From a virus (taxonomy: Duplodnaviria; Caudoviricetes), in IMG/VR virus record IMGVR_UViG_3300008255_000136, positions 5,335-69,334 of that record: DNA of 64,000 nucleotides; one strand, 5' to 3'. How positions within the stretch are numbered: the first letter of the stretch is position 1; each line of letters opens with the position of its first letter. Shown in pieces: positions 4,509 through 58,422 of the stretch. The translations under genes were made by a program, and so were the position numbers. Under the pieces are notes generated by a model that was not told where the DNA came from, made no database searches, and was given only the letters and a program-made list of their open reading frames with translations.

Positions 4509-5447
4509 ATGAGAATATATTTTGATAATGTTTTTTTTGATTCTCAATCTGGACCGAACTCATTTGGAAACAGGCTTGCTAACCAGTTTCTAAAAATGGG
4601 ACATGAGATTGCAAAGGAAAATGAAAATTATGATATTTTTTTATCCTTTATTGAACAAAGAGTTCGTTCTGCCCTTAGGTCAAAAAAGGTCCTTAGACTA
4701 GATGGAATTTGGTTTAAGCCAGAAAATTTTGAACAAAACAACAGAACAATTAAGCAAGCTTATTTTGCTTTTGATCATGTTATTTTTCAAAGCAATTTTG
4801 ATAAACAAATGATTGAAACACATTTTGGTAAAAGGTCTGATTGTTCAGTTATTCATAATGGAATTGATTTATGCGTAATGGATGCGATTCCTCAAATAAG
4901 TCATAAAAATGAAAAAATATTTGTTTGTTCTGCTTCTTGGCATCCGCAAAAAAGATTAAAAGACAATATATTATTATTTTCTCAAATTAGAAAACAATTA
5001 AAAAAGAACAGAGAAGATGCGAGGCTTTATGTTCTTGGAAAGAACGCAGACTTTCAAAGTCTAAGCTCTGAAGATTTGGAGAATGTTTTTTATCTTGGTC
5101 ACCAAAGGCATGAAGCATGTTTGAAGATTTATGCAACTGCTGACTATTTTATCCATTTGGCTTGGCTGGATCACTGCCCAAATGTGGTGGTAGAAGCCCT
5201 AAGTCAAGGATGTCCAGTAATTTGCACAAGCAGCGGAGGAACTCACGAGATTGTAAAAGAAAATGGAATAATAATTCCCGAAACAAAAGATTACAATTTT
5301 GAACTTACTGATTATGACTCTCCTTACCCTATTGATTTTTCTAATTTTATATTGCCTGAAAAAAGACCTGAAGTTAATGCAGATTATCTTGATATCGAAA
5401 AAGTAGCCGAAGAATATATAAGGATTTTTAAAAATGAAACATATTGA
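4509..5447 (+). CDS. Glycosyltransferase, GT4-like (GT-B fold)
   Basis: SGP, RLDG, IFQS, VIHNG, HPQKR, DHCPNVVVEALSQGCPVI. Confidence 0.9.
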   Translation: MRIYFDNVFFDSQSGPNSFGNRLANQFLKMGHEIAKENENYDIFLSFIEQRVRSALRSKKVLRLDGIWFKPENFEQNNRTIKQAYFAFDHVIFQSNFDKQMIETHFGKRSDCSVIHNGIDLCVMDAIPQISHKNEKIFVCSASWHPQKRLKDNILLFSQIRKQLKKNREDARLYVLGKNADFQSLSSEDLENVFYLGHQRHEACLKIYATADYFIHLAWLDHCPNVVVEALSQGCPVICTSSGGTHEIVKENGIIIPETKDYNFELTDYDSPYPIDFSNFILPEKRPEVNADYLDIEKVAEEYIRIFKNETY

Positions 5448-47819: not shown

Positions 47820-50800
47820 ATGGCCATTAACGTAAAGGCCCATCATGCAAAAGAAATATTAAGGTGCGGAAAAGATCCAATATATTTCATTAATAAATAT
47901 GTAAAGATTCAGCACCCTACAAAAGGAGCAATTCCTTTTGATACATTTGACTTTCAGGATGATTGTGTTGAAGAATTTATTAAGCATAGATTTACCATTG
48001 TTTTAAAGGCAAGGCAGCTTGGACTATCTACGGTCACAGCCGCTTATGCTTTATGGATGGTTTTATTTAGAGAAAATGCTAACGTTCTTGTTATTGCTAC
48101 AAAATTAAGCACAGCAAAAAACTTCATTGCGAAATGTAAATACATGTTAAAGATGTTGCCGCCATGGCTTATTCTTTGTGATATTTCGAGTGAAACTGTT
48201 CAAACCATTCAAACATCTCGTGGTTCTGTTTTAAAGGCTGTTCCAACATCTCCTGACGCTGGTCGTTCTGAGGCATTGTCTCTTTTGATTATTGATGAAG
48301 CTGCCTTCGTTCGTGACTTCGATGAGCTTTGGAAAGGCCTCTATCCAACTCTATCCTGCTTGACCGGAGACACATTGGTCTTGTCAGATAAAGGATTTAA
48401 AAGAATTGGGGATTATTTTGAAAATAAGAATATTGGAGATTATTTTGAATTAAATTCAAAGATTTGGGGAAAAAATGGGATTGAAGATATCTCTCATGGA
48501 TATGTTTCTCCAAAGTCAAAAGTTTTAGAAATCAGAACTCAAAGCGGCTCGACATTAAAGATCACTCCTAACCACCCTTTGTATTCATTGAAGGAAGGAA
48601 ATGAAAGGCCAAAAATGATCCCAGGAAAATATCTTTCTATTGGAGATCATCTAAGAACTTCATATGGAATGAATTCTTTTGGAGATGTCTGCATTGATGA
48701 TGACTTGGCATATATGGTTGGAGGATTTATTGCAGAAGGATGGATGACCTCAACCTCTCAAGAAAAAAATTATACAACATGGATTTCTAATACAGATGAT
48801 TCATTTAGAGATATTTTTATTAGAAATGGATTTTCTCCTGATAAATCAAACAATGAGAAATTGAGAATTTGTTCCGTTAATTTTTGTGACAAACTTAAGT
48901 CAATTGGAATTGAACCCAAAAGAAAATGTTATGAAAAAATAACTCCAAATGAAGTTTTTTCTTGGAATAAAATAGCAACTTCAAAATATCTTTCTGCATT
49001 GTTTGATGGAGATGGATCTGTTTCAGAAAGTGGAATCGTATTGAGTTCGACATCTGAGCAATTGTTGCAAGAAACAAAGATAATTCTTTCTAATTATGGG
49101 ATTTATGGAAACATCCATAAATCCACAGATTCCGAATCTAAGTTAAATTATGAACGTAAAACAGGAAGATTGTTGCCACAAGGTAAACCCGTTCAGTCTT
49201 TGCATGATTGTTGGTCAATAATAATACCAAGAAGTCAAATGAAACTTTTTTCTGAAGAGATTGGATTTAAAATTAAAAGAAAGCAACTTTTGCTTGAAAA
49301 ATATATTCAAGCATATAGCCAAGATTCTTCAAAAATATTTCAAATACCAAAATCAAATATTTATTTAAAAATAAAAGATATTGTAAAAGATTCAAATAAA
49401 AGTACTTATTGGTTTAGAAAGAATGGACTAAGACTAGATAAAATTCTTGATAAAAATATGGAAAGATATGTCAATCAAGAATTTTTAAGAAAATTAAGAG
49501 ATTTGATTGGTGAAAATTTGAAAGAAAAATATTCTTTATTTTTTGAAGAATATTTGTCTGATACTTTTAGGTGGGATAGAATTGTTTCAATATCAGAATC
49601 AGAAGATGAAGTTGTAACATATGACTTTACAGTTCCTGAAACTCATTCTTTTTTGCAAAATGGAATCCTTGGAAGCAATACAGGAGGGCGCGCAATTCTT
49701 TTGTCCTGTGTAACAGAAAATACATGGGTTTTTACTGACAAAGGGCCAACTCAAGTTAAAAACTTTATACAGCAAAAAAATAGTTTTGGCGGATATGAGA
49801 TAAGTGAATATTCTGTTTTAGGAAAGGATAAACTTAGAAATGGAACGCTATTCCATAACAATGGAAAAGTTGAGACAAAAAAAATAACGACTCAACATTC
49901 TTGGTTGGAAGGTTCTAATAATCATAAGGTTTGGGCTTGTGTTGATGGAAAATACAATTGGCATAGATTAGATCAATTAAAAGAAGGTGACTATATTGCT
50001 TATCAATATGGAATGAATTCTTGGGGTTTTAATGATGATATTTCTTGTTTTTCACATGTTCCATCGTCTAAAGAGAAAAATGTTCCAAATTTGGGAGAAA
50101 AAATAACAAAAGACCTGTCTTATATATTTGGAATGTATTTGGCCGAAGGTTCAAATTATAAAGTTTTAAATAATCAAAATGAACAAGTTGGAAATCATCT
50201 AACAATTACATGTGGAGACGATATTTCAAATATTTTTGAAAGCATTGAATTGTCTTCCAAGTCATATGACAATATGCATTATAATATTTCTTCCAAGTCT
50301 TTCGGACTTTTTCTGGAGTACGTTGGTTTTAATTTAGATCTAAAGGCAAAAGAAAAACATATACCAGACAGACTTTTGCAAATGAGCAAAGAAAACATAG
50401 CCTCCATGTTATCTGGTCTTTTTGATGGAGATGGGTATAGCAGAAGTGATCGTGGAACTATTGGAATTTCCTTATCTTCAAAAAGGCTAATAGAACAAAT
50501 AAGAATTCTTCTCAATAATTTTGGAATAATAACTGATTACTATGAGGGAACTTCTCTACCAACAGAAAAAGTTAAAGTTGAATCAAAATATTATAGGATT
50601 GAAATAAATGGAAGATATTCTAATATATTTTATGATGAAATTGGGTTTGGATTTGAAAGAAAGCAGAATAATAAAGAAAAATTAAAAGAATGTTATAACA
50701 TCTCTGCAAAAAATACAAAGGATATAATTCCAAATTCTTTGGGACTTTTGAATGAAATATATTCATATTCCTCAGAAAATTTAAATACGCTATATAAAAA

Positions 50801-52163
50801 ATATGGCCTATTTATGAATGGAATTCTAAATAAAAAAACAAAATATAAAACAGATGACATTAGCAGAGATGTTTGTTTGAAATTTTGGAATATAGTAAAA
50901 GATGATGTAATTAAAAAAGCACCAGAAAAAGTAGAAAATATTGATAATATAATATCTTCAAATATTAAATGGGACAGGATTAAAAATATAGAAGATGGAC
51001 TAGAAGAAACTTATGATTTCTCTCTGCCAGACATTGAAAAAGATTTTTGGTGCCATTCTGTAATTTACAATGGAATGCTTGGACATCAAACCCCAAATGG
51101 AACAGGCAATAAGTTTTTCGATATTTATGATAAGGCAGAAAAAAAAGAAAATGAATTCTATCCAATAAAGTTACCTTGGACCGTTCATCCTGAACGTGAT
51201 GAAAAATGGTTTAAAGAACAAACCGGAAACATGACAGTTAAGGAAATTGCACAGGAACACGAATGTGACTTTGCAGCTTCTGGTGATACATTTCTTGATC
51301 CTTCTATTATTGAAAAGCTTAGAAAAGCAGCCAGGGAGCCAATAAAAAGGGTTGGTGAGGATCGCAATATTTATATTTGGGAAGATTCAATTCCTGGCCA
51401 TAAATACATTCTTTCGGCAGACGTTGCAAGAGGTGATGGAAAAGATTATTCTACATTCCATATTATTGATGCTGAAATGGGAAAGGTTGTTGCAGAATAT
51501 CAAGGAAAGTTGCCACCTGATCGTTTTGCTGAGCTAATAAATGAATTTGGGCTTTTGTACAACAAGGCATTGGTTTGTCCTGAAAACAACAACGTGGGAT
51601 ATGCTGTTGTTCAAAGGCTTTGTTATTTGAACTATCCAAGAATCTATAATAACAAAGAAAAGTCTTTGGACATATGGAGTGCCATGGCTGGGAACGATGG
51701 AGATTTGCAAAATCCTTCTGGTGATCTTGGAATATTTACGTCTGGCGGCAAGAAAAATGTTCTTTTGACCAAAATGGAAGAAATGTTAAGAAATGATAAA
51801 GTTGAAATCTATTCAGATAGGCTTTGTCGAGAATTAAAAACATTTGTTTGGTTAGGAAACCATAAGGTTGGAGCAGACAAAAAGAAGAATGACGATCTTG
51901 TAATGAGTTTGGCTATTGGCCTCTGGCTTTTGGATACAGCGGATTTTGCTAGATTCTCAGAGGATCAAGGAAAAGCATTGCTTGATGCGATGTCTCAATC
52001 GTCTTCAAAGCTGGATGACATTATTGAAATGGGTTCAAAGAAAAAGGATGATTACAGTGTAATGTTGCCAGCAGCCGGAAATGCTAGCGGCTTTTCTAGA
52101 ATGACGGGAAAGACAAATAGGGTGCAAGTCCTAAACAAGAATTGGGATTGGCTAATGAAATAG
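47820..52163 (+). CDS. terL: Terminase large subunit (T4 gp17-like) precursor with two inteins; about 545 aa after splicing
   Basis: KARQLGLST Walker A, IIDEAAF Walker B, reconstructed PTLSTGGRAILLSTPNG, nuclease ADVARGDGKDYS, DDLVMSL. Confidence 0.95.
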   Translation: MAINVKAHHAKEILRCGKDPIYFINKYVKIQHPTKGAIPFDTFDFQDDCVEEFIKHRFTIVLKARQLGLSTVTAAYALWMVLFRENANVLVIATKLSTAKNFIAKCKYMLKMLPPWLILCDISSETVQTIQTSRGSVLKAVPTSPDAGRSEALSLLIIDEAAFVRDFDELWKGLYPTLSCLTGDTLVLSDKGFKRIGDYFENKNIGDYFELNSKIWGKNGIEDISHGYVSPKSKVLEIRTQSGSTLKITPNHPLYSLKEGNERPKMIPGKYLSIGDHLRTSYGMNSFGDVCIDDDLAYMVGGFIAEGWMTSTSQEKNYTTWISNTDDSFRDIFIRNGFSPDKSNNEKLRICSVNFCDKLKSIGIEPKRKCYEKITPNEVFSWNKIATSKYLSALFDGDGSVSESGIVLSSTSEQLLQETKIILSNYGIYGNIHKSTDSESKLNYERKTGRLLPQGKPVQSLHDCWSIIIPRSQMKLFSEEIGFKIKRKQLLLEKYIQAYSQDSSKIFQIPKSNIYLKIKDIVKDSNKSTYWFRKNGLRLDKILDKNMERYVNQEFLRKLRDLIGENLKEKYSLFFEEYLSDTFRWDRIVSISESEDEVVTYDFTVPETHSFLQNGILGSNTGGRAILLSCVTENTWVFTDKGPTQVKNFIQQKNSFGGYEISEYSVLGKDKLRNGTLFHNNGKVETKKITTQHSWLEGSNNHKVWACVDGKYNWHRLDQLKEGDYIAYQYGMNSWGFNDDISCFSHVPSSKEKNVPNLGEKITKDLSYIFGMYLAEGSNYKVLNNQNEQVGNHLTITCGDDISNIFESIELSSKSYDNMHYNISSKSFGLFLEYVGFNLDLKAKEKHIPDRLLQMSKENIASMLSGLFDGDGYSRSDRGTIGISLSSKRLIEQIRILLNNFGIITDYYEGTSLPTEKVKVESKYYRIEINGRYSNIFYDEIGFGFERKQNNKEKLKECYNISAKNTKDIIPNSLGLLNEIYSYSSENLNTLYKKYGLFMNGILNKKTKYKTDDISRDVCLKFWNIVKDDVIKKAPEKVENIDNIISSNIKWDRIKNIEDGLEETYDFSLPDIEKDFWCHSVIYNGMLGHQTPNGTGNKFFDIYDKAEKKENEFYPIKLPWTVHPERDEKWFKEQTGNMTVKEIAQEHECDFAASGDTFLDPSIIEKLRKAAREPIKRVGEDRNIYIWEDSIPGHKYILSADVARGDGKDYSTFHIIDAEMGKVVAEYQGKLPPDRFAELINEFGLLYNKALVCPENNNVGYAVVQRLCYLNYPRIYNNKEKSLDIWSAMAGNDGDLQNPSGDLGIFTSGGKKNVLLTKMEEMLRNDKVEIYSDRLCRELKTFVWLGNHKVGADKKKNDDLVMSLAIGLWLLDTADFARFSEDQGKALLDAMSQSSSKLDDIIEMGSKKKDDYSVMLPAAGNASGFSRMTGKTNRVQVLNKNWDWLMK
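48357..49679 (+). mobile_element. Intein TerL-1 with LAGLIDADG endonuclease, 441 aa
   Basis: Starts CLTGDT; block B TPNH; GGFIAEG and SALFDGDG; ends YDFTVPETHSFLQNGILGSN, then +1 Thr. Confidence 0.95.
49707..51089 (+). mobile_element. Intein TerL-2 with LAGLIDADG endonuclease, 461 aa, C-terminal Gln
   Basis: Starts CVTENT; SNNH; GMYLAEG and SGLFDGDG; ends YDFSLP...YNGMLGHQ, then +1 Thr. Confidence 0.93.
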
Positions 52164-53508: not shown

Positions 53509-56500
53509 ATGGCAAAAAGACAAAATTTATTCGCAAGACTAACAAGACTATTTAAAGCAGGCCCAATTGTAAAAAAACAAGTAAAGGGGTTTGATAGTGC
53601 CTCCGTCAAATCTTCCGCTCTGGACGTGTTTAGAAAAAGTACAGCAACAGTCTATGGAAATAGTTTAAATGCATATGGACAATATGATCGACTCTGCGTG
53701 GACTCTCGTACTAAAATAGCGATTCCTGGACCTGAAAGGTACATTGAAATTCAGGATTTGGGCAAAAAATATCCAAATGGAGAAAAATTTATTGTTTATG
53801 CATACGATCACGATGAAATGTGCATAAAGCCAGCTTGGGCTCATCATCCAAGATGTTCAGGCAATAAGGAAACTGTAAAAGTAACATTTGATGACGGAAC
53901 ATTCTTGATTTGCACTCCCGATCATCCATGTCTTATGAGAGATGGAAAATACAAGAATGCCGAGGACTTAAATGCGGGAACTTCAATGATGCCTTTTTAC
54001 AGAAGGGACTTCAAAGGAAAATCCAATAAAGATGGAAAAAAATTCGTTGTATCGGTCGAACCATTTGGCAAGCAAGAAGTTTGGGACTTGACTGTTGATG
54101 GGCATGAAAATTTTGCGACAGACACGATAGTTGTGCATAACTCTCGATATTCGGACTTCTGTTTGCGTGGAGATACTTTAGTCTATACAACTAAAGGAGT
54201 TTTTACAATAAAAGAATTGGCTGAAAAAAATGCCAATGATATAATTCATGTTTATTCGTACGATCAGGTGAATAATAAAATGGTCATAGCGCCAGCCCAT
54301 TCTCCAAGAATTACTCACAAAGGAGAAAAGCAAGATTTAATAAAAGTTAATTTTGATACAGGCGGAAGTGTTACTACAACGCCAAATCATAAATTTATGT
54401 TAAGGGATGGTTCTCCTTGTGAGGCAAAAGACCTAAAGGCAGACAATGCCCTCATGCCATTCAATGTGAGAGACTTGGCTGGTCATGGGTATAAATGGAT
54501 TTATACTATTAATAAAAATGATAAATCTGGAGGCTGGACACCTGAGCATGTTTTAGTTGCAGAATATTTTAATAGAAAATTAAAGCCCAACGAAATTGTT
54601 CATCATAAAGATTTTGATAGAGGAAATAACTTAATTGAAAATTTGGAAATCATGGATAGGTACGAGCATAATAGGTACCATGCTCAATTAAATAATAAAA
54701 ATAAATTTGGAAAACCGAATGAGAAACATTCTCAATGGATGAAAGAAAATAATACTGCAAAAAGAAACGATATAACATTTGAAAAAATACTGGAAGTCGC
54801 AACAGAAACTGACTTTACAATGAGCAAGGTAAAGGAAATTCTAAAAGTTGATCAAAATGTTATCAAGAGAAGACTAAGAGAGGTAGGATTTGAAAATTGG
54901 TTAGATTTTAAATCTAAGAAAGATTACATACAGCAATCAATTATTCATGAATCAATTGTTGAAGAAACAAAATCACCAGAAATTGAAGAAATATTAGAAC
55001 ATGGAAAAGATTGTGAAAATATTTATAAATTATGTCAAAAATTAAGTTGTTCACCTAATGCTGTTAGAAGAAGGCTAAATTCTTGTGGATATGGAACTTG
55101 GTCAGATTTTAAAGAAAAAAATGGCCATGAAATCGTAAAAGGAGTTGGAAGAACATCACTTATTGATGATTCAATTTCTTATCAAGATATTTGTAATTCA
55201 TATAAGCAAGGTATGACGTATGCAGAATTGGCAAAGGCGGCAAATACAACTCATAATAAAGTTATTTCAAGAATTAAAAAAGAAGGATTTAAATCTTATC
55301 ATGAATGGACTGAAGCCTATAGTAACCACAAAGTATCATCCATCGAACATCTAGAAGAAAAAGATTTTGTCTACAATATAACAGTTCCAGAATATCATAA
55401 TTTGGCAGTAGGATGCTATAATAAAAATTATCCAAAAGATGGCCAAGTACTTGATTTTACTATGGTTTTTCAAAGTGAAATGGAATATTGTTTACATGGG
55501 GATACAAAAATTGCAATTCCAAATGGGTATAAAACAATTAAAGAGTTGTCTGAAGAGTATGGAACTGATAAAGAATTTATTGTTTATGCTTACGATCACA
55601 ATATTGGAGGACTGACTCCTGCATTAGCAAAGCAAGCAAGGAAAACAAGATTTGATCATGCCTGGAAGGTTGTTTTTGACAATGGTCAAGAAATTATAGG
55701 CACTGCAAATCATCGATTAATGAAAAGAGATGGTACTTTTTGTAAAATTGAAGATCTAAAACCGGGAACTTCAATGATGCCATTTTATAGGAAAGATTTT
55801 TATAGCGAAAATAAAGATGAAAATTCTGATGGTTATCGTTGGATTTATACAATAAACGACGGATGGAAAACAGAACATCAATTTATAGCAGAATGGATAA
55901 GTGATAGAAAAATTCAAAAAGGAGAATGTGTTCATCATATAAATTATAAAAAATGGGATAATAGACCTGAAAATTTAAGGATTATGACATTATCAGAGCA
56001 TACAATTTTGCATAACAATTCTGATAAATGGTCAGAAGAAAATTCGGAATGGATAGAAAAATTCAAAAAAAATCATTCTGCATGGATGAAAAAAAATAAT
56101 CCTGCAAAAAGATCAGATATAACTTTTGGAAAAATTCTTGAATTATGTGAAAGCATTGGTTTTAATCTTTATAAAATTTGCGATGCTCTTGACACAGATC
56201 CTAATGCAATTAAAAGAAGATTGAGAGAAAATGGCTTTCAGGATTTTGTTACATTTTGTAAAGCATATAATGAAAATTGGAAAAGTGATTCCTGGAATAA
56301 TAAAGGAGAAAATAATCCTAGATTTAAAAATGAAATAACTTTTCAGTCAATATGCAATGTCTTTGAAAAGGCTAAAACATTGAATGAAATTAAAAAAGAA
56401 CTTAATTGTTCTCATGTTTTGATAACTAAAAGATTGAAAGATAATGGATTTTCTAATTTTACAGATTTTTCAAAAAATTATTCAAATCACAAAATTTCCT

Positions 56501-58422
56501 CTATTGAATATTATGGAAAAATAGATCTATATGATTTGACTGTTGATGGATATAAGAACTTTGCAACAGATACGATCATTTCTCACAATACACCAGAAAT
56601 TGCTAGTGCTGTTGACATTTACGCTGACGAGACGGTCGCTAAAGACGAGAAGGATCGTTCGCTTCATGTGTATTCAGAGAATCCAAAGATTAAGAGGCTT
56701 CTTGAAGAATTATTTTATGACACATTGAATTTTGAATTTTCTGGTCGTTCTTGGGTTCGTAACTTATGTAAATATGGGGATTTCTTCCTTTTAAATGACG
56801 TTTCTCCGAAGTATGGGGTTATCAATGCGCACCCTATTCCCGTCAATGAAATTGAAAGAGAAGAGGGTTTTGACCCTGAAAATCCTTTTGCTGTTAGGTT
56901 TAGATGGGTAACAGAAGGAAATCAGGTTCTTGAAAACTGGCAGGTTACACACTTTAGGCTTCTGGGAAATGATACGTTTCTTCCTTATGGCTCTAGTGTT
57001 TTGGAGAGTGCTAGAAGAATTTGGAGACAACTTGTCATGGCTGAGGATGCCATGCTTGTATATCGAATCATTCGTTCGCCTGAAAGACGAGTTTTCTATA
57101 TTGATGTTGCGAATGCTCCACCTAATGACATTCCAAATATTATTGAAAATGCAAGAACAACCTTGAAGTCGCAGGAGGTTATTGACAAAGATGCTGGTCG
57201 TGTAGATTTGCGATACAACCCATGGGCAGTTGACATTGATTATTTTATTCCTGTTCGTGGACAAGAGGGAGGAACGAAGGTTGATACACTTCCTGGAGGT
57301 GCCAACACAACAGCGATTGACGACGTTGAATACATTCAGCGCAAGCTTTTTGCTGCTCTAAAGGTTCCAAAGGCATATTTGGGATTTGATGAGTCTTTGG
57401 GTGGAAAAGCAAACTTGGCCGCTGAAGATGTTCGTTTCGCAAGAACAATTCAGCAGATTCAGCAAGTTGTTATTTCTGAATTGAATAAAATAGCAGCAAT
57501 TCATTTGGCTGCCCATGGTTATGATGGAGAAGATCTAATAAACTTTAGATTGCAATTAAGCAATCCTTCTACGATGGCTCAGCAACAGAAACTTGAGCTT
57601 CTTAGAAGTAGATTTGAAATTGCAGGAACAAGGCCGGAAGGCCTTCTTTCTGACAAGTATCTTTACAAAGAGGTATTTGGAATGACGGATGATTCAATCT
57701 CCATAATGGAAGAGGATCAAATTAAGGAACTAATAAGAAAGGCCCAGATGGAGCAAATGGGTGCTGCTGCTGCCGAAGGTGGCGGAGGTGGTGGCCTCGG
57801 TGGTGGAATGGGCGGAGGCGGTGGCCTCGGCGGAATTGAAGATCTTGGAGGCGGAGACGAAGGAGGCGAAGAGGGTGGAGAGCCACCGCCAGAAGGAGGA
57901 GAAGATCTTGGAGGCGGAGATGATTTATTCGCCGAAGAAGAATTTGGTTCTGAAAGACTTATTTCTGACGATGAAGATGAAATTATCGAATTTGGATTAG
58001 ACGAAGGCGATGACGAATATAAGCCTGTAAATCAGCAAAGTCAGATATCGAGATATCGTCATAACAATTTGAGACCAAGTAGAAGAAAGATGAAAGGTTC
58101 AAAAGGAATGACTCCGACAAATCCTGGGGACGCCTGGAACCATAAAGATCCTCATTTTCATGATGTTTCATTGAAGAGAGCTTGGAGTGCGGGAACTTCA
58201 GTAAATAAAGATGGTTCTTTTAAACTAACCGATGCTATTCAAAGACATATGGAAATGATTGAAGATTCAGAAATTAAACGAACAAGATTGTCATCAGAAA
58301 CAAAACACACTATAGATTCCCTTTCAAGGAAAATACCTATAAAGAGTAACACTTTAACAGACGGTGTTGCTGAGAAGATTTCAAGTCTAATAATTGAGTC
58401 CGATGAAGAGGATAATGAATGA
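53509..58422 (+). CDS. Portal vertex protein (T4 gp20-like) precursor with three inteins; about 683 aa after splicing
   Basis: Reconstructed DRL-SRYSDF-SEMEY-TPEIASAVDIYADE; RNLCKYGD, EDAMLVYRIIRSPERRVFYIDV, DYFIPVRG, LKVP. Confidence 0.95.
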   Translation: MAKRQNLFARLTRLFKAGPIVKKQVKGFDSASVKSSALDVFRKSTATVYGNSLNAYGQYDRLCVDSRTKIAIPGPERYIEIQDLGKKYPNGEKFIVYAYDHDEMCIKPAWAHHPRCSGNKETVKVTFDDGTFLICTPDHPCLMRDGKYKNAEDLNAGTSMMPFYRRDFKGKSNKDGKKFVVSVEPFGKQEVWDLTVDGHENFATDTIVVHNSRYSDFCLRGDTLVYTTKGVFTIKELAEKNANDIIHVYSYDQVNNKMVIAPAHSPRITHKGEKQDLIKVNFDTGGSVTTTPNHKFMLRDGSPCEAKDLKADNALMPFNVRDLAGHGYKWIYTINKNDKSGGWTPEHVLVAEYFNRKLKPNEIVHHKDFDRGNNLIENLEIMDRYEHNRYHAQLNNKNKFGKPNEKHSQWMKENNTAKRNDITFEKILEVATETDFTMSKVKEILKVDQNVIKRRLREVGFENWLDFKSKKDYIQQSIIHESIVEETKSPEIEEILEHGKDCENIYKLCQKLSCSPNAVRRRLNSCGYGTWSDFKEKNGHEIVKGVGRTSLIDDSISYQDICNSYKQGMTYAELAKAANTTHNKVISRIKKEGFKSYHEWTEAYSNHKVSSIEHLEEKDFVYNITVPEYHNLAVGCYNKNYPKDGQVLDFTMVFQSEMEYCLHGDTKIAIPNGYKTIKELSEEYGTDKEFIVYAYDHNIGGLTPALAKQARKTRFDHAWKVVFDNGQEIIGTANHRLMKRDGTFCKIEDLKPGTSMMPFYRKDFYSENKDENSDGYRWIYTINDGWKTEHQFIAEWISDRKIQKGECVHHINYKKWDNRPENLRIMTLSEHTILHNNSDKWSEENSEWIEKFKKNHSAWMKKNNPAKRSDITFGKILELCESIGFNLYKICDALDTDPNAIKRRLRENGFQDFVTFCKAYNENWKSDSWNNKGENNPRFKNEITFQSICNVFEKAKTLNEIKKELNCSHVLITKRLKDNGFSNFTDFSKNYSNHKISSIEYYGKIDLYDLTVDGYKNFATDTIISHNTPEIASAVDIYADETVAKDEKDRSLHVYSENPKIKRLLEELFYDTLNFEFSGRSWVRNLCKYGDFFLLNDVSPKYGVINAHPIPVNEIEREEGFDPENPFAVRFRWVTEGNQVLENWQVTHFRLLGNDTFLPYGSSVLESARRIWRQLVMAEDAMLVYRIIRSPERRVFYIDVANAPPNDIPNIIENARTTLKSQEVIDKDAGRVDLRYNPWAVDIDYFIPVRGQEGGTKVDTLPGGANTTAIDDVEYIQRKLFAALKVPKAYLGFDESLGGKANLAAEDVRFARTIQQIQQVVISELNKIAAIHLAAHGYDGEDLINFRLQLSNPSTMAQQQKLELLRSRFEIAGTRPEGLLSDKYLYKEVFGMTDDSISIMEEDQIKELIRKAQMEQMGAAAAEGGGGGGLGGGMGGGGGLGGIEDLGGGDEGGEEGGEPPPEGGEDLGGGDDLFAEEEFGSERLISDDEDEIIEFGLDEGDDEYKPVNQQSQISRYRHNNLRPSRRKMKGSKGMTPTNPGDAWNHKDPHFHDVSLKRAWSAGTSVNKDGSFKLTDAIQRHMEMIEDSEIKRTRLSSETKHTIDSLSRKIPIKSNTLTDGVAEKISSLIIESDEEDNE
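53695..54141 (+). mobile_element. Portal intein 1, mini-intein with no endonuclease, 149 aa
   Basis: Starts CVDSRT; TPDH; ends WDLTVDGHENFATDTIVVHN, then +1 Ser. Confidence 0.95.
54160..55473 (+). mobile_element. Portal intein 2 with HNH endonuclease, 438 aa, ends Phe-Gln
   Basis: Starts CLRGDT; TPNH; VHHKDFDRGNNLIENL; YNITVPEYHNLAVG...TMVFQ, then +1 Ser. Confidence 0.9.
55489..56589 (+). mobile_element. Portal intein 3 with HNH endonuclease, 367 aa
   Basis: Starts CLHGDT; TANH; VHHINYKKWDNRPENL; ends YDLTVDGYKNFATDTIISHN, then +1 Thr. Confidence 0.95.
57763..57930 (+). repeat. Gly/Glu low-complexity, GC-rich repeats in the portal C-terminal tail
   Basis: gaagatcttggaggcggaga at 57838 and 57901; ggcggagg.ggtggcctcgg at 57781 and 57811. 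Confidence 0.9.

Follow-up and report, generated by a model that had tools for sequence, protein, structure and literature searches.

A stack of three predicted inteins in the T4-type portal gene of an uncultured phage, and the intein hotspot in which it lies

How do three inteins come to stand within 11 residues of a single phage portal protein, and did they arrive separately or together? The question is raised by a T4 gp20-type portal gene in a stretch of 64,000 nucleotides (the window), which covers positions 5,335 to 69,334 of the IMG/VR virus record IMGVR_UViG_3300008255_000136. The record comprises 69,334 bp, was rated 19% complete by CheckV, and derives from an uncultured phage that is probably large and T4-like. 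The analysis suggests, with a probability of roughly 80%, that three related class-1 inteins of an HNH family entered the portal gene, each at a point of its own, and that the stack accumulated stepwise, block homing not being its main origin. The inteins are designated I1, I2 and I3 and their insertion sites a, b and c; the features of the locus are as follows.

53509..58422, forward strand: portal precursor open reading frame (ORF), T4 gp20-type with three predicted inteins; 1637 amino acids (AA), frame uninterrupted over 4.9 kb
53509..53694, forward strand: N-extein, 62 AA, ending ...YGQYDRL; gap-free against intein-free portals
53695..54141 (AA 63-211), forward strand: predicted intein a (I1), a 149-AA mini-intein without endonuclease, Cys1...VVHN, +1 Ser; Intein_splicing 5.3e-12, TIGR01445 and TIGR01443
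54142..54159, forward strand: micro-extein 1, SRYSDF, 18 bp; from the boundary cuts and alignment to intein-free portals
54160..55473 (AA 218-655), forward strand: predicted intein b (I2), 438 AA, Cys1...MVFQ, +1 Ser, HNH domain and helical repeats; from profile matches and an AlphaFold2 model
54547..54675 (I2 residues 130-172), forward strand: HNH nuclease motif of I2; HNH_3 31.7 bits, cut-off 24.8
55474..55488, forward strand: micro-extein 2, SEMEY, 15 bp; from the boundary cuts and alignment to intein-free portals
55489..56589 (AA 661-1027), forward strand: predicted intein c (I3), 367 AA, Cys1...ISHN, +1 Thr, HNH domain and helical repeats; from profile matches
55912..56001 (I3 residues 142-171), forward strand: HNH nuclease motif of I3; HNH_3 29.6 bits, cut-off 24.8
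56590..58422, forward strand: C-extein, 610 AA, starting TPEIASAVDIYADE, portal core and Gly/acid-rich tail; Portal_T4 and alignment to intein-free portals

The Pfam scan of the ORF revealed a Portal_T4 match (1.4e-67) at residues 1027-1406, together with Intein_splicing in three stretches and HNH_3 in two. Removal of the three inteins leaves a portal of 683 AA, in which the insertion points fall after L62, F68 and Y73, each directly before Ser or Thr. When the C-extein was used as query, intein-free portals with a length of about 684 AA were recovered in their thousands, and the closest (P0002, 684 AA) was 91% identical. When the spliced N-terminus was aligned with 38 intein-free portals, zero gaps were observed through YGQYDRL-SRYSDF-SEMEY-TPEIASAVDIYADE. 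This colinear restoration of the portal is far beyond chance, and the alignment fixes all six intein boundaries, including the unusual ...MVFQ/S end of I2. An earlier reading of the window (the original prediction), made from the letters alone, had placed three Cys-start segments of 149, 438 and 367 AA in the portal, separated by internal exteins of 18 and 15 bp, and had expected the spliced 683-AA protein to align colinearly with its homologues. Identical coordinates were recovered here within one ORF, all three segments matched intein profiles, SRYSDF and SEMEY were confirmed as the internal exteins, and the alignment was colinear as expected. The precursor would thus need three splicing reactions to yield the functional 683-AA portal.

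Profile analysis of the separate pieces gave PF14890 Intein_splicing scores of 46.2, 54.1 and 55.4 bits for I1, I2 and I3 (cut-off 35.8), and the N- and C-terminal intein models TIGR01445 and TIGR01443 matched each of them. HNH_3 was found in I2 and I3, and no HNH_3 match above the cut-off was obtained when I1 was scanned alone. All three inteins begin with Cys1 and carry the block B TxxH motif as TPDH (I1), TPNH (I2) or TANH (I3). In an alignment of 20 inteins, the block-B His (H77) was invariant and the Thr (T74) nearly so (at least 90%), while the HNH columns HH...N...NL...H...H were kept in all full-length members. The C-terminal junctions read HN/S in I1, HN/T in I3, and FQ/S in I2, which lacks the penultimate His; I1 and I3 retain every catalytic position. 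In pairwise comparison, I1 was 40% identical to I3 in the N-terminal portion of the splicing region and 59% in the C-terminal portion, and I2 was 31% identical to I3 over the full length, HNH domain and helical repeats included. Judged by these sequences, I1, I2 and I3 are paralogous class-1 inteins of one HNH-endonuclease family.

The C-terminus of I2 differs from the usual pattern, as it ends in Gln without a penultimate His and has a loop of about 15 residues before the last strand. The same Gln end, missing His and extended loop were seen in 13 divergent inteins of 390-452 AA at the same site (site 68, numbered by the preceding residue of the spliced portal), and the odd terminus thus reads as a lineage trait. 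I2 is predicted to use Gln rather than Asn cyclisation. The AlphaFold2 model of I2 (mean predicted local distance difference test, pLDDT, 78.9) showed a closed HINT domain with a last strand at 430-437 (pLDDT about 85), and its comparison with solved mini-inteins (Ssp DnaB, Mtu RecA, Npu DnaB) gave a Foldseek probability of 1.0 and template modelling scores of 0.54-0.61 on the target, so that the HINT fold of I2 is supported by the model. Following the HNH domain (54757-56487), helical modules of about 50 AA can be seen, approximately four in I2 and two to three in I3, with the common pattern ITF..I......F.......L......IKRRL...G. They give weak helix-turn-helix-type matches, are modelled as helical bundles, and probably form a modular DNA-binding arm.

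The triple stack is rare but recurrent, and three is the highest number met inside the motif. A portal with a C-extein 92% identical to that of the window (P0122, locus L081) contains the same a+b+c array with lengths of 149, 438 and 367 AA; this array comes from an independent ENA scaffold, and a separate Logan contig of 139,890 bp also encodes the protein. A more distant portal (P0157, about 63% identical) carries a+b+c built from other alleles, namely mini-inteins of 140 and 163 AA and a 375-AA HNH intein, and one further locus (L088) has inteins at sites 68, 73 and 88. The junctions were also searched in IMG/VR using degenerate patterns, with the record of the window excluded; a-b was found on four contigs, b-c on four, and a-c on one. 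Among 80 IMG/VR portal loci picked by C-extein only, site a was occupied in 3, site b in 5 and site c in 10.

Selection and nucleotide identity were evaluated between the window and L081, at a synonymous divergence (dS) of about 1. The ratio of non-synonymous to synonymous substitution (dN/dS) was 0.07 for I2, 0.05 for I3, 0.20 for I1 and 0.03-0.05 for the exteins; the HNH segments gave 0.04 in I2 and 0.12 in I3, and the helical repeats 0.05-0.10, all of which are rough values as dS is near saturation. Strong purifying selection acts on all parts of I2 and I3, the HNH domains and helical repeats among them, and both are therefore probably active. The dS of the HNH part of I3 was 0.30, below that of the exteins, which may hint at a more recent exchange.

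These results bear on the simplest objection, that the segments are decayed, non-splicing remnants in a dead gene, or that the array is a chimera of metagenome assembly. The record is indeed a metagenomic contig and the C-terminus of I2 is non-canonical. However, decay is contradicted by the intact 4.9-kb frame, the complete catalytic positions of I1 and I3, and dN/dS values of 0.05-0.07, and a chimera by a second, independently assembled array with about 80% nucleotide identity, by the presence of the same protein on the 139,890-bp contig, and by the inteins themselves, which at 31-40% protein identity are too divergent for misjoining. An artefact or a dead gene is thus hardly credible.

The history of the three inteins could be followed in a splicing-domain tree, in which the inteins clustered by site. 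Site 73 (c) formed one clade (support 95) and site 62 (a) another (97), and the two were sisters (97). Site 68 (b) contained at least two lineages; I2 fell in a clade (97) in which each sampled member has a terminal Gln, apart from P0131 with a terminal Asn. The I2 and I3 copies of the window were each sister to their P0122 counterpart, whereas I1 grouped (97/93) with an HNH-bearing intein of 356 AA at site a of P0125. I1 shares 79% AA identity with the P0125 copy (locus L083) and is 71% identical to the P0122 copy; a clade forced to unite I1 with the P0122 copy was rejected by a post hoc approximately unbiased (AU) test (p=0.034), and the deletion boundaries of the two 149-AA mini-inteins differ. 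Based on these comparisons, I1 arose by deletion from an HNH intein of 356-400 AA at site a and has thereby lost its HNH domain. Its affinity to P0125 and the differing boundaries indicate that the site-a endonuclease was lost separately in the two arrays, or that I1 was replaced. The original prediction had regarded I1 as an endonuclease-free mini-intein that hitchhikes on its neighbours; this view is not upheld, as I1 is no born hitchhiker, and its nearest kin lies in P0125 and not in the sister triple.

At the nucleotide level, identity between the window and L081 was 79.6% in the exteins, 84% in I2, 88% in I3 and 71% in I1. An intein-free locus (L001) was 75.6% and 76.4% identical to the window and L081, respectively, which is below the 79.6% shared by the two. 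The window and L081 are therefore mutual nearest relatives, and one ancestral b+c or a+b+c array suffices to explain both. A FastTree topology of the exteins, in which each occupancy of a or b counted as a separate change even between the window and P0122, was set aside on account of these identities. In the stepwise reading, site-specific inteins would have gathered at a, b and c one after another and not in one event; I2 and I3 would already have stood together in the ancestor shared with the relative at about 80% nucleotide identity, and I1 would have had a separate history.

The principal competing explanation, which was also the one favored by the original prediction, is a composite mobile element with overlapping targets that spreads mainly as a block: the HNH nuclease of I2 or I3 would cut an empty allele, repair would proceed from a triple donor, and I1 would be carried along. 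Part of this proposal stands. With 18 and 15 bp, the spacers leave no room for independent endonuclease targets and are too short for homology arms, so that repair of an empty allele should probably copy all three inteins, and recombination would treat a stacked array as a single linkage block. Between the window and L081, the identity of I2 and I3 equals or slightly exceeds that of the exteins. Occupied sites are also found together more often than by chance in the 128 nearest cluster representatives (Fisher p 1e-4, 3e-3 and 1e-3, kinship ignored), and the signal is weaker without P0122. In an independent-pairs test on a 233-row extein tree, however, the association was not significant, although the informative pairs were too few to give the test power and the comparison of b with c was biased by the length cut of the search set. 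All eight occupancy patterns (none, a, b, c, ab, ac, bc, abc) are present in relatives, so that the occupancy of the sites, to which the original prediction had looked for a decision, favors block homing in the naive tests, shows no significant association in the independent pairs, and speaks against it in the full range of combinations. Single inteins and all doubles exist, often with different intein alleles; the inteins form site-specific clades and do not cluster by host gene; the history of I1 is discordant and the deletion boundaries of the two triple arrays are unlike; and no co-conversion tract was seen around sites a, b and c in the nucleotide comparison of the window, L081 and L001. 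Moreover, when two neighbouring active inteins were tested in Haloferax, they co-homed into an empty allele with very low efficiency (PMC10643990). Spread mainly as a block is thus considered unlikely as the origin of the stack.

Several points weigh against the preferred reading as a whole. Block transfer, too, would lead to above-chance co-occurrence. Relaxed constraint, in place of a separate origin, could account for the faster divergence of I1, and the AU test was post hoc with a p of only 0.034. The relatives sampled were best-scoring subsets of homologue searches and not a census, and the near-saturated dS blurs the selection estimates. I2, having neither a terminal Asn nor a penultimate His, could splice slowly or under special conditions, and both splicing and cleavage at this locus are deduced from sequence throughout.

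The stack is one instance of a wider pattern in the portal family. About 1,566 homologous portal clusters of 900-2865 AA were found beside more than 8,000 short ones, a representative-wide search returned portals of up to 2,818 AA, and an insertion of at least 80 AA was present in 120 of the 120 best-scoring long portals that were mapped using a long-gap-tolerant alignment. In this sample, canonical inteins were located after spliced residues 62 (n=27), 65 (8), 68 (30), 73 (131), 78 (3), 84 (14) and 88 (15). Each of the seven mapped sites directly precedes Ser, Thr or Cys, and site 73, the one held by I3, was the commonest. At least seven insertion points therefore lie in 27 codons of one conserved motif, which constitutes a hotspot, and this block is the best-conserved stretch in the N-terminal 130 residues of the portal. 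Other insertion sites were observed near residues 132, 208, 221, 235, 285, 310 and 343-349. Among cultured-phage records, the closest portal was that of Microcystis phage Mel-JY01 (45%), and no close relative of I3 was found there.

Some insertions in the family depart from the canonical pattern. Four to approximately six separate insertions, far above the number in the window, are present in P0315 (2818 AA), P0356, P0316 and P0290. The insertions at site 132 (P0134, P0147, P0234 and P0251) are 250-450 AA long, with an Asn end before Cys and an apparent Pro start (RNL/PVHK...N/CKYGD); they could be non-canonical inteins, for instance of a class-3-like kind, unless the alignment is off by one residue. 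Large insertions at 284-286 and 310 (P0235, P0252, P0315 and P0321) start with LPV.., LC.. or QFPV.. and end with ..N/S, which falls outside the Cys1/HN rules.

The position of the hotspot in the portal fold was assessed using the intein-free homologue P0002. Its Portal_T4 match spans residues 65-453, reaching profile position 4. In its AlphaFold2 model, sites a and b fall in the helix at 56-73 and site c in the turn before the helix at 76-89. The model matched T4 gp20 structures with Z scores of 18.3-19.5, and model residues 59-64 corresponded to gp20 residues 70-74. A sequence search of solved structures aligned T4 gp20 over the central portal only, and the position of the motif was taken from the model. 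According to this alignment, to about gp20 residue 74, the stack would be located at the start of the ordered portal fold.

Such a location, where an essential ring protein forms its first ordered helices, would suit a domesticated timing switch, in which the portal matures late or conditionally because it has to splice three times in sequence, once by the slow Gln route, and head assembly is thereby coupled to the state of the infected cell. The strong purifying selection on whole inteins agrees with this, as does the presence of two inteins in the terminase of the same phage. However, close relatives thrive without inteins (P0002, 91% identical), occupancy is sporadic as in selfish elements, the purifying selection on the HNH domain points to mobility and not to regulation, and no redox or sensor feature was identified in the inteins. 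A regulatory role of the stack is thus improbable, and invasion by mobile inteins at separate points continues to be preferred.

A broader scheme can be drawn for the family. In the intein tree, sites 84 and 88 are intermixed, as are sites 343, 344, 345, 347 and 349, which suggests that, in a single lineage, the insertion point has moved more than once by a few codons. The N-terminal helices of the portal might accordingly be a landing pad, on which one HNH-intein lineage radiated by few-codon shifts onto every available Ser, Thr or Cys, after which the stacks would move as a composite element, splice in order and be mutually orthogonal. We regard this scheme as tentative; if true, the stack would be a naturally occurring trio of paralogous inteins that do not cross-react and need minimal flanks.

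The neighbouring large terminase gene (47820-52163) contains two LAGLIDADG inteins of 441 and 461 AA, at 48357-49679 and 49707-51089. These are only 9 residues apart (PTLS/C...SN/TGGRAILLS/C...HQ/TPNG), and the remainder of the protein is 77% identical to an intein-free terminase of 547 AA in L082. The two packaging-motor genes of the phage, portal and terminase, thus hold five inteins in all. The G+C content at third codon positions was 0.20 in I2 and 0.17 in I3, compared to 0.32 in the C-extein and 0.34 in I1; across all four endonuclease inteins (I2, I3 and the two in the terminase) it was 0.17-0.20, against 0.29-0.32 in the host exteins. The C-terminal tail of the portal (57600-58050) is a Gly-rich, acidic low-complexity stretch with a G+C content of 0.52, compared to 0.34 for the genome. 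It is not present in T4 gp20 and is predicted to be disordered in the homologue model (pLDDT below 50 at residues 468-558).

The hotspot is of more interest than the single locus in the window, which is one instance of it. It offers a natural system for the coexistence of homing endonucleases with overlapping targets, in which neighbours may help or hinder each other's spread, and for the means by which paralogous inteins avoid cross-splicing at a spacing of 5-6 residues, a matter of practical interest for orthogonal intein tools. The family is abundant enough in metagenomes for the evolutionary questions to be answered from data that already exist.

Inteins have been described before, as have multi-intein genes and inteins of phage portals; the hotspot of this portal family is apparently undescribed. 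No description of micro-extein stacks, or of inteins in the T4-type portal family, was found in the searched literature, and absence there is no proof of novelty. The original prediction had considered portal inteins uncommon and knew of no triple stack. This agrees with the searched literature and not with public metagenomes, which hold intein-bearing portals of this family in abundance and contain the triple more than once.

Several known systems can be compared with the stack. In HNH-type inteins, such as the cyanobacterial GyrB family, the HINT domain is interrupted by an HNH nuclease in place of LAGLIDADG. The portal inteins share this HINT and HNH plan and differ in the host gene, the site, and the two to four helical repeat modules after the HNH domain. 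The Gln-ending PolII inteins of Pab and Pho splice by Gln cyclisation, more slowly than their Asn variants (PMC8175363). I2 resembles them in its C-terminal Gln but is distant in sequence, lacks the penultimate His, and carries a loop of about 15 residues before the last strand as well as an HNH domain.

Phage packaging-motor genes are also intein hosts in actinobacteriophages, where portal and terminase inteins have been described and the portal inteins are polyphyletic with several insertion sites (Kelley et al. 2016, PMC5050341; bioRxiv 10.1101/2025.01.02.630785); no mention of tandem or adjacent intein stacks was found in these papers. Those portals belong to IPR009279 and their inteins are mostly LAGLIDADG, of class 1 or 3, whereas the present portal belongs to the Pfam Portal_T4 family and its inteins carry HNH. 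The close intein pairs found in the literature are 85 residues apart in Tko Pol and 48 in Pab CDC21 (PMC8966425). These are also multi-intein proteins, and the spacing of 6 and 5 residues in the window is roughly ten times tighter.

The closest parallel is provided by the MCM inteins, in which several close sites are sporadically occupied, singly or doubly, and co-homing into an empty allele is inefficient (PMC10643990). Both systems have close sites in one essential ring protein, sporadic occupancy, and mini-inteins beside endonuclease-bearing ones, and both pose the same question of co-homing versus independent homing. The MCM sites are tens of residues apart and their inteins are of the LAGLIDADG type, whereas the portal stack brings together three HNH-family paralogues within 11 residues of a phage structural gene. 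Three inteins in 11 residues, within a hotspot of at least seven sites in 27 codons, constitute a much denser arrangement than any of the literature examples found.

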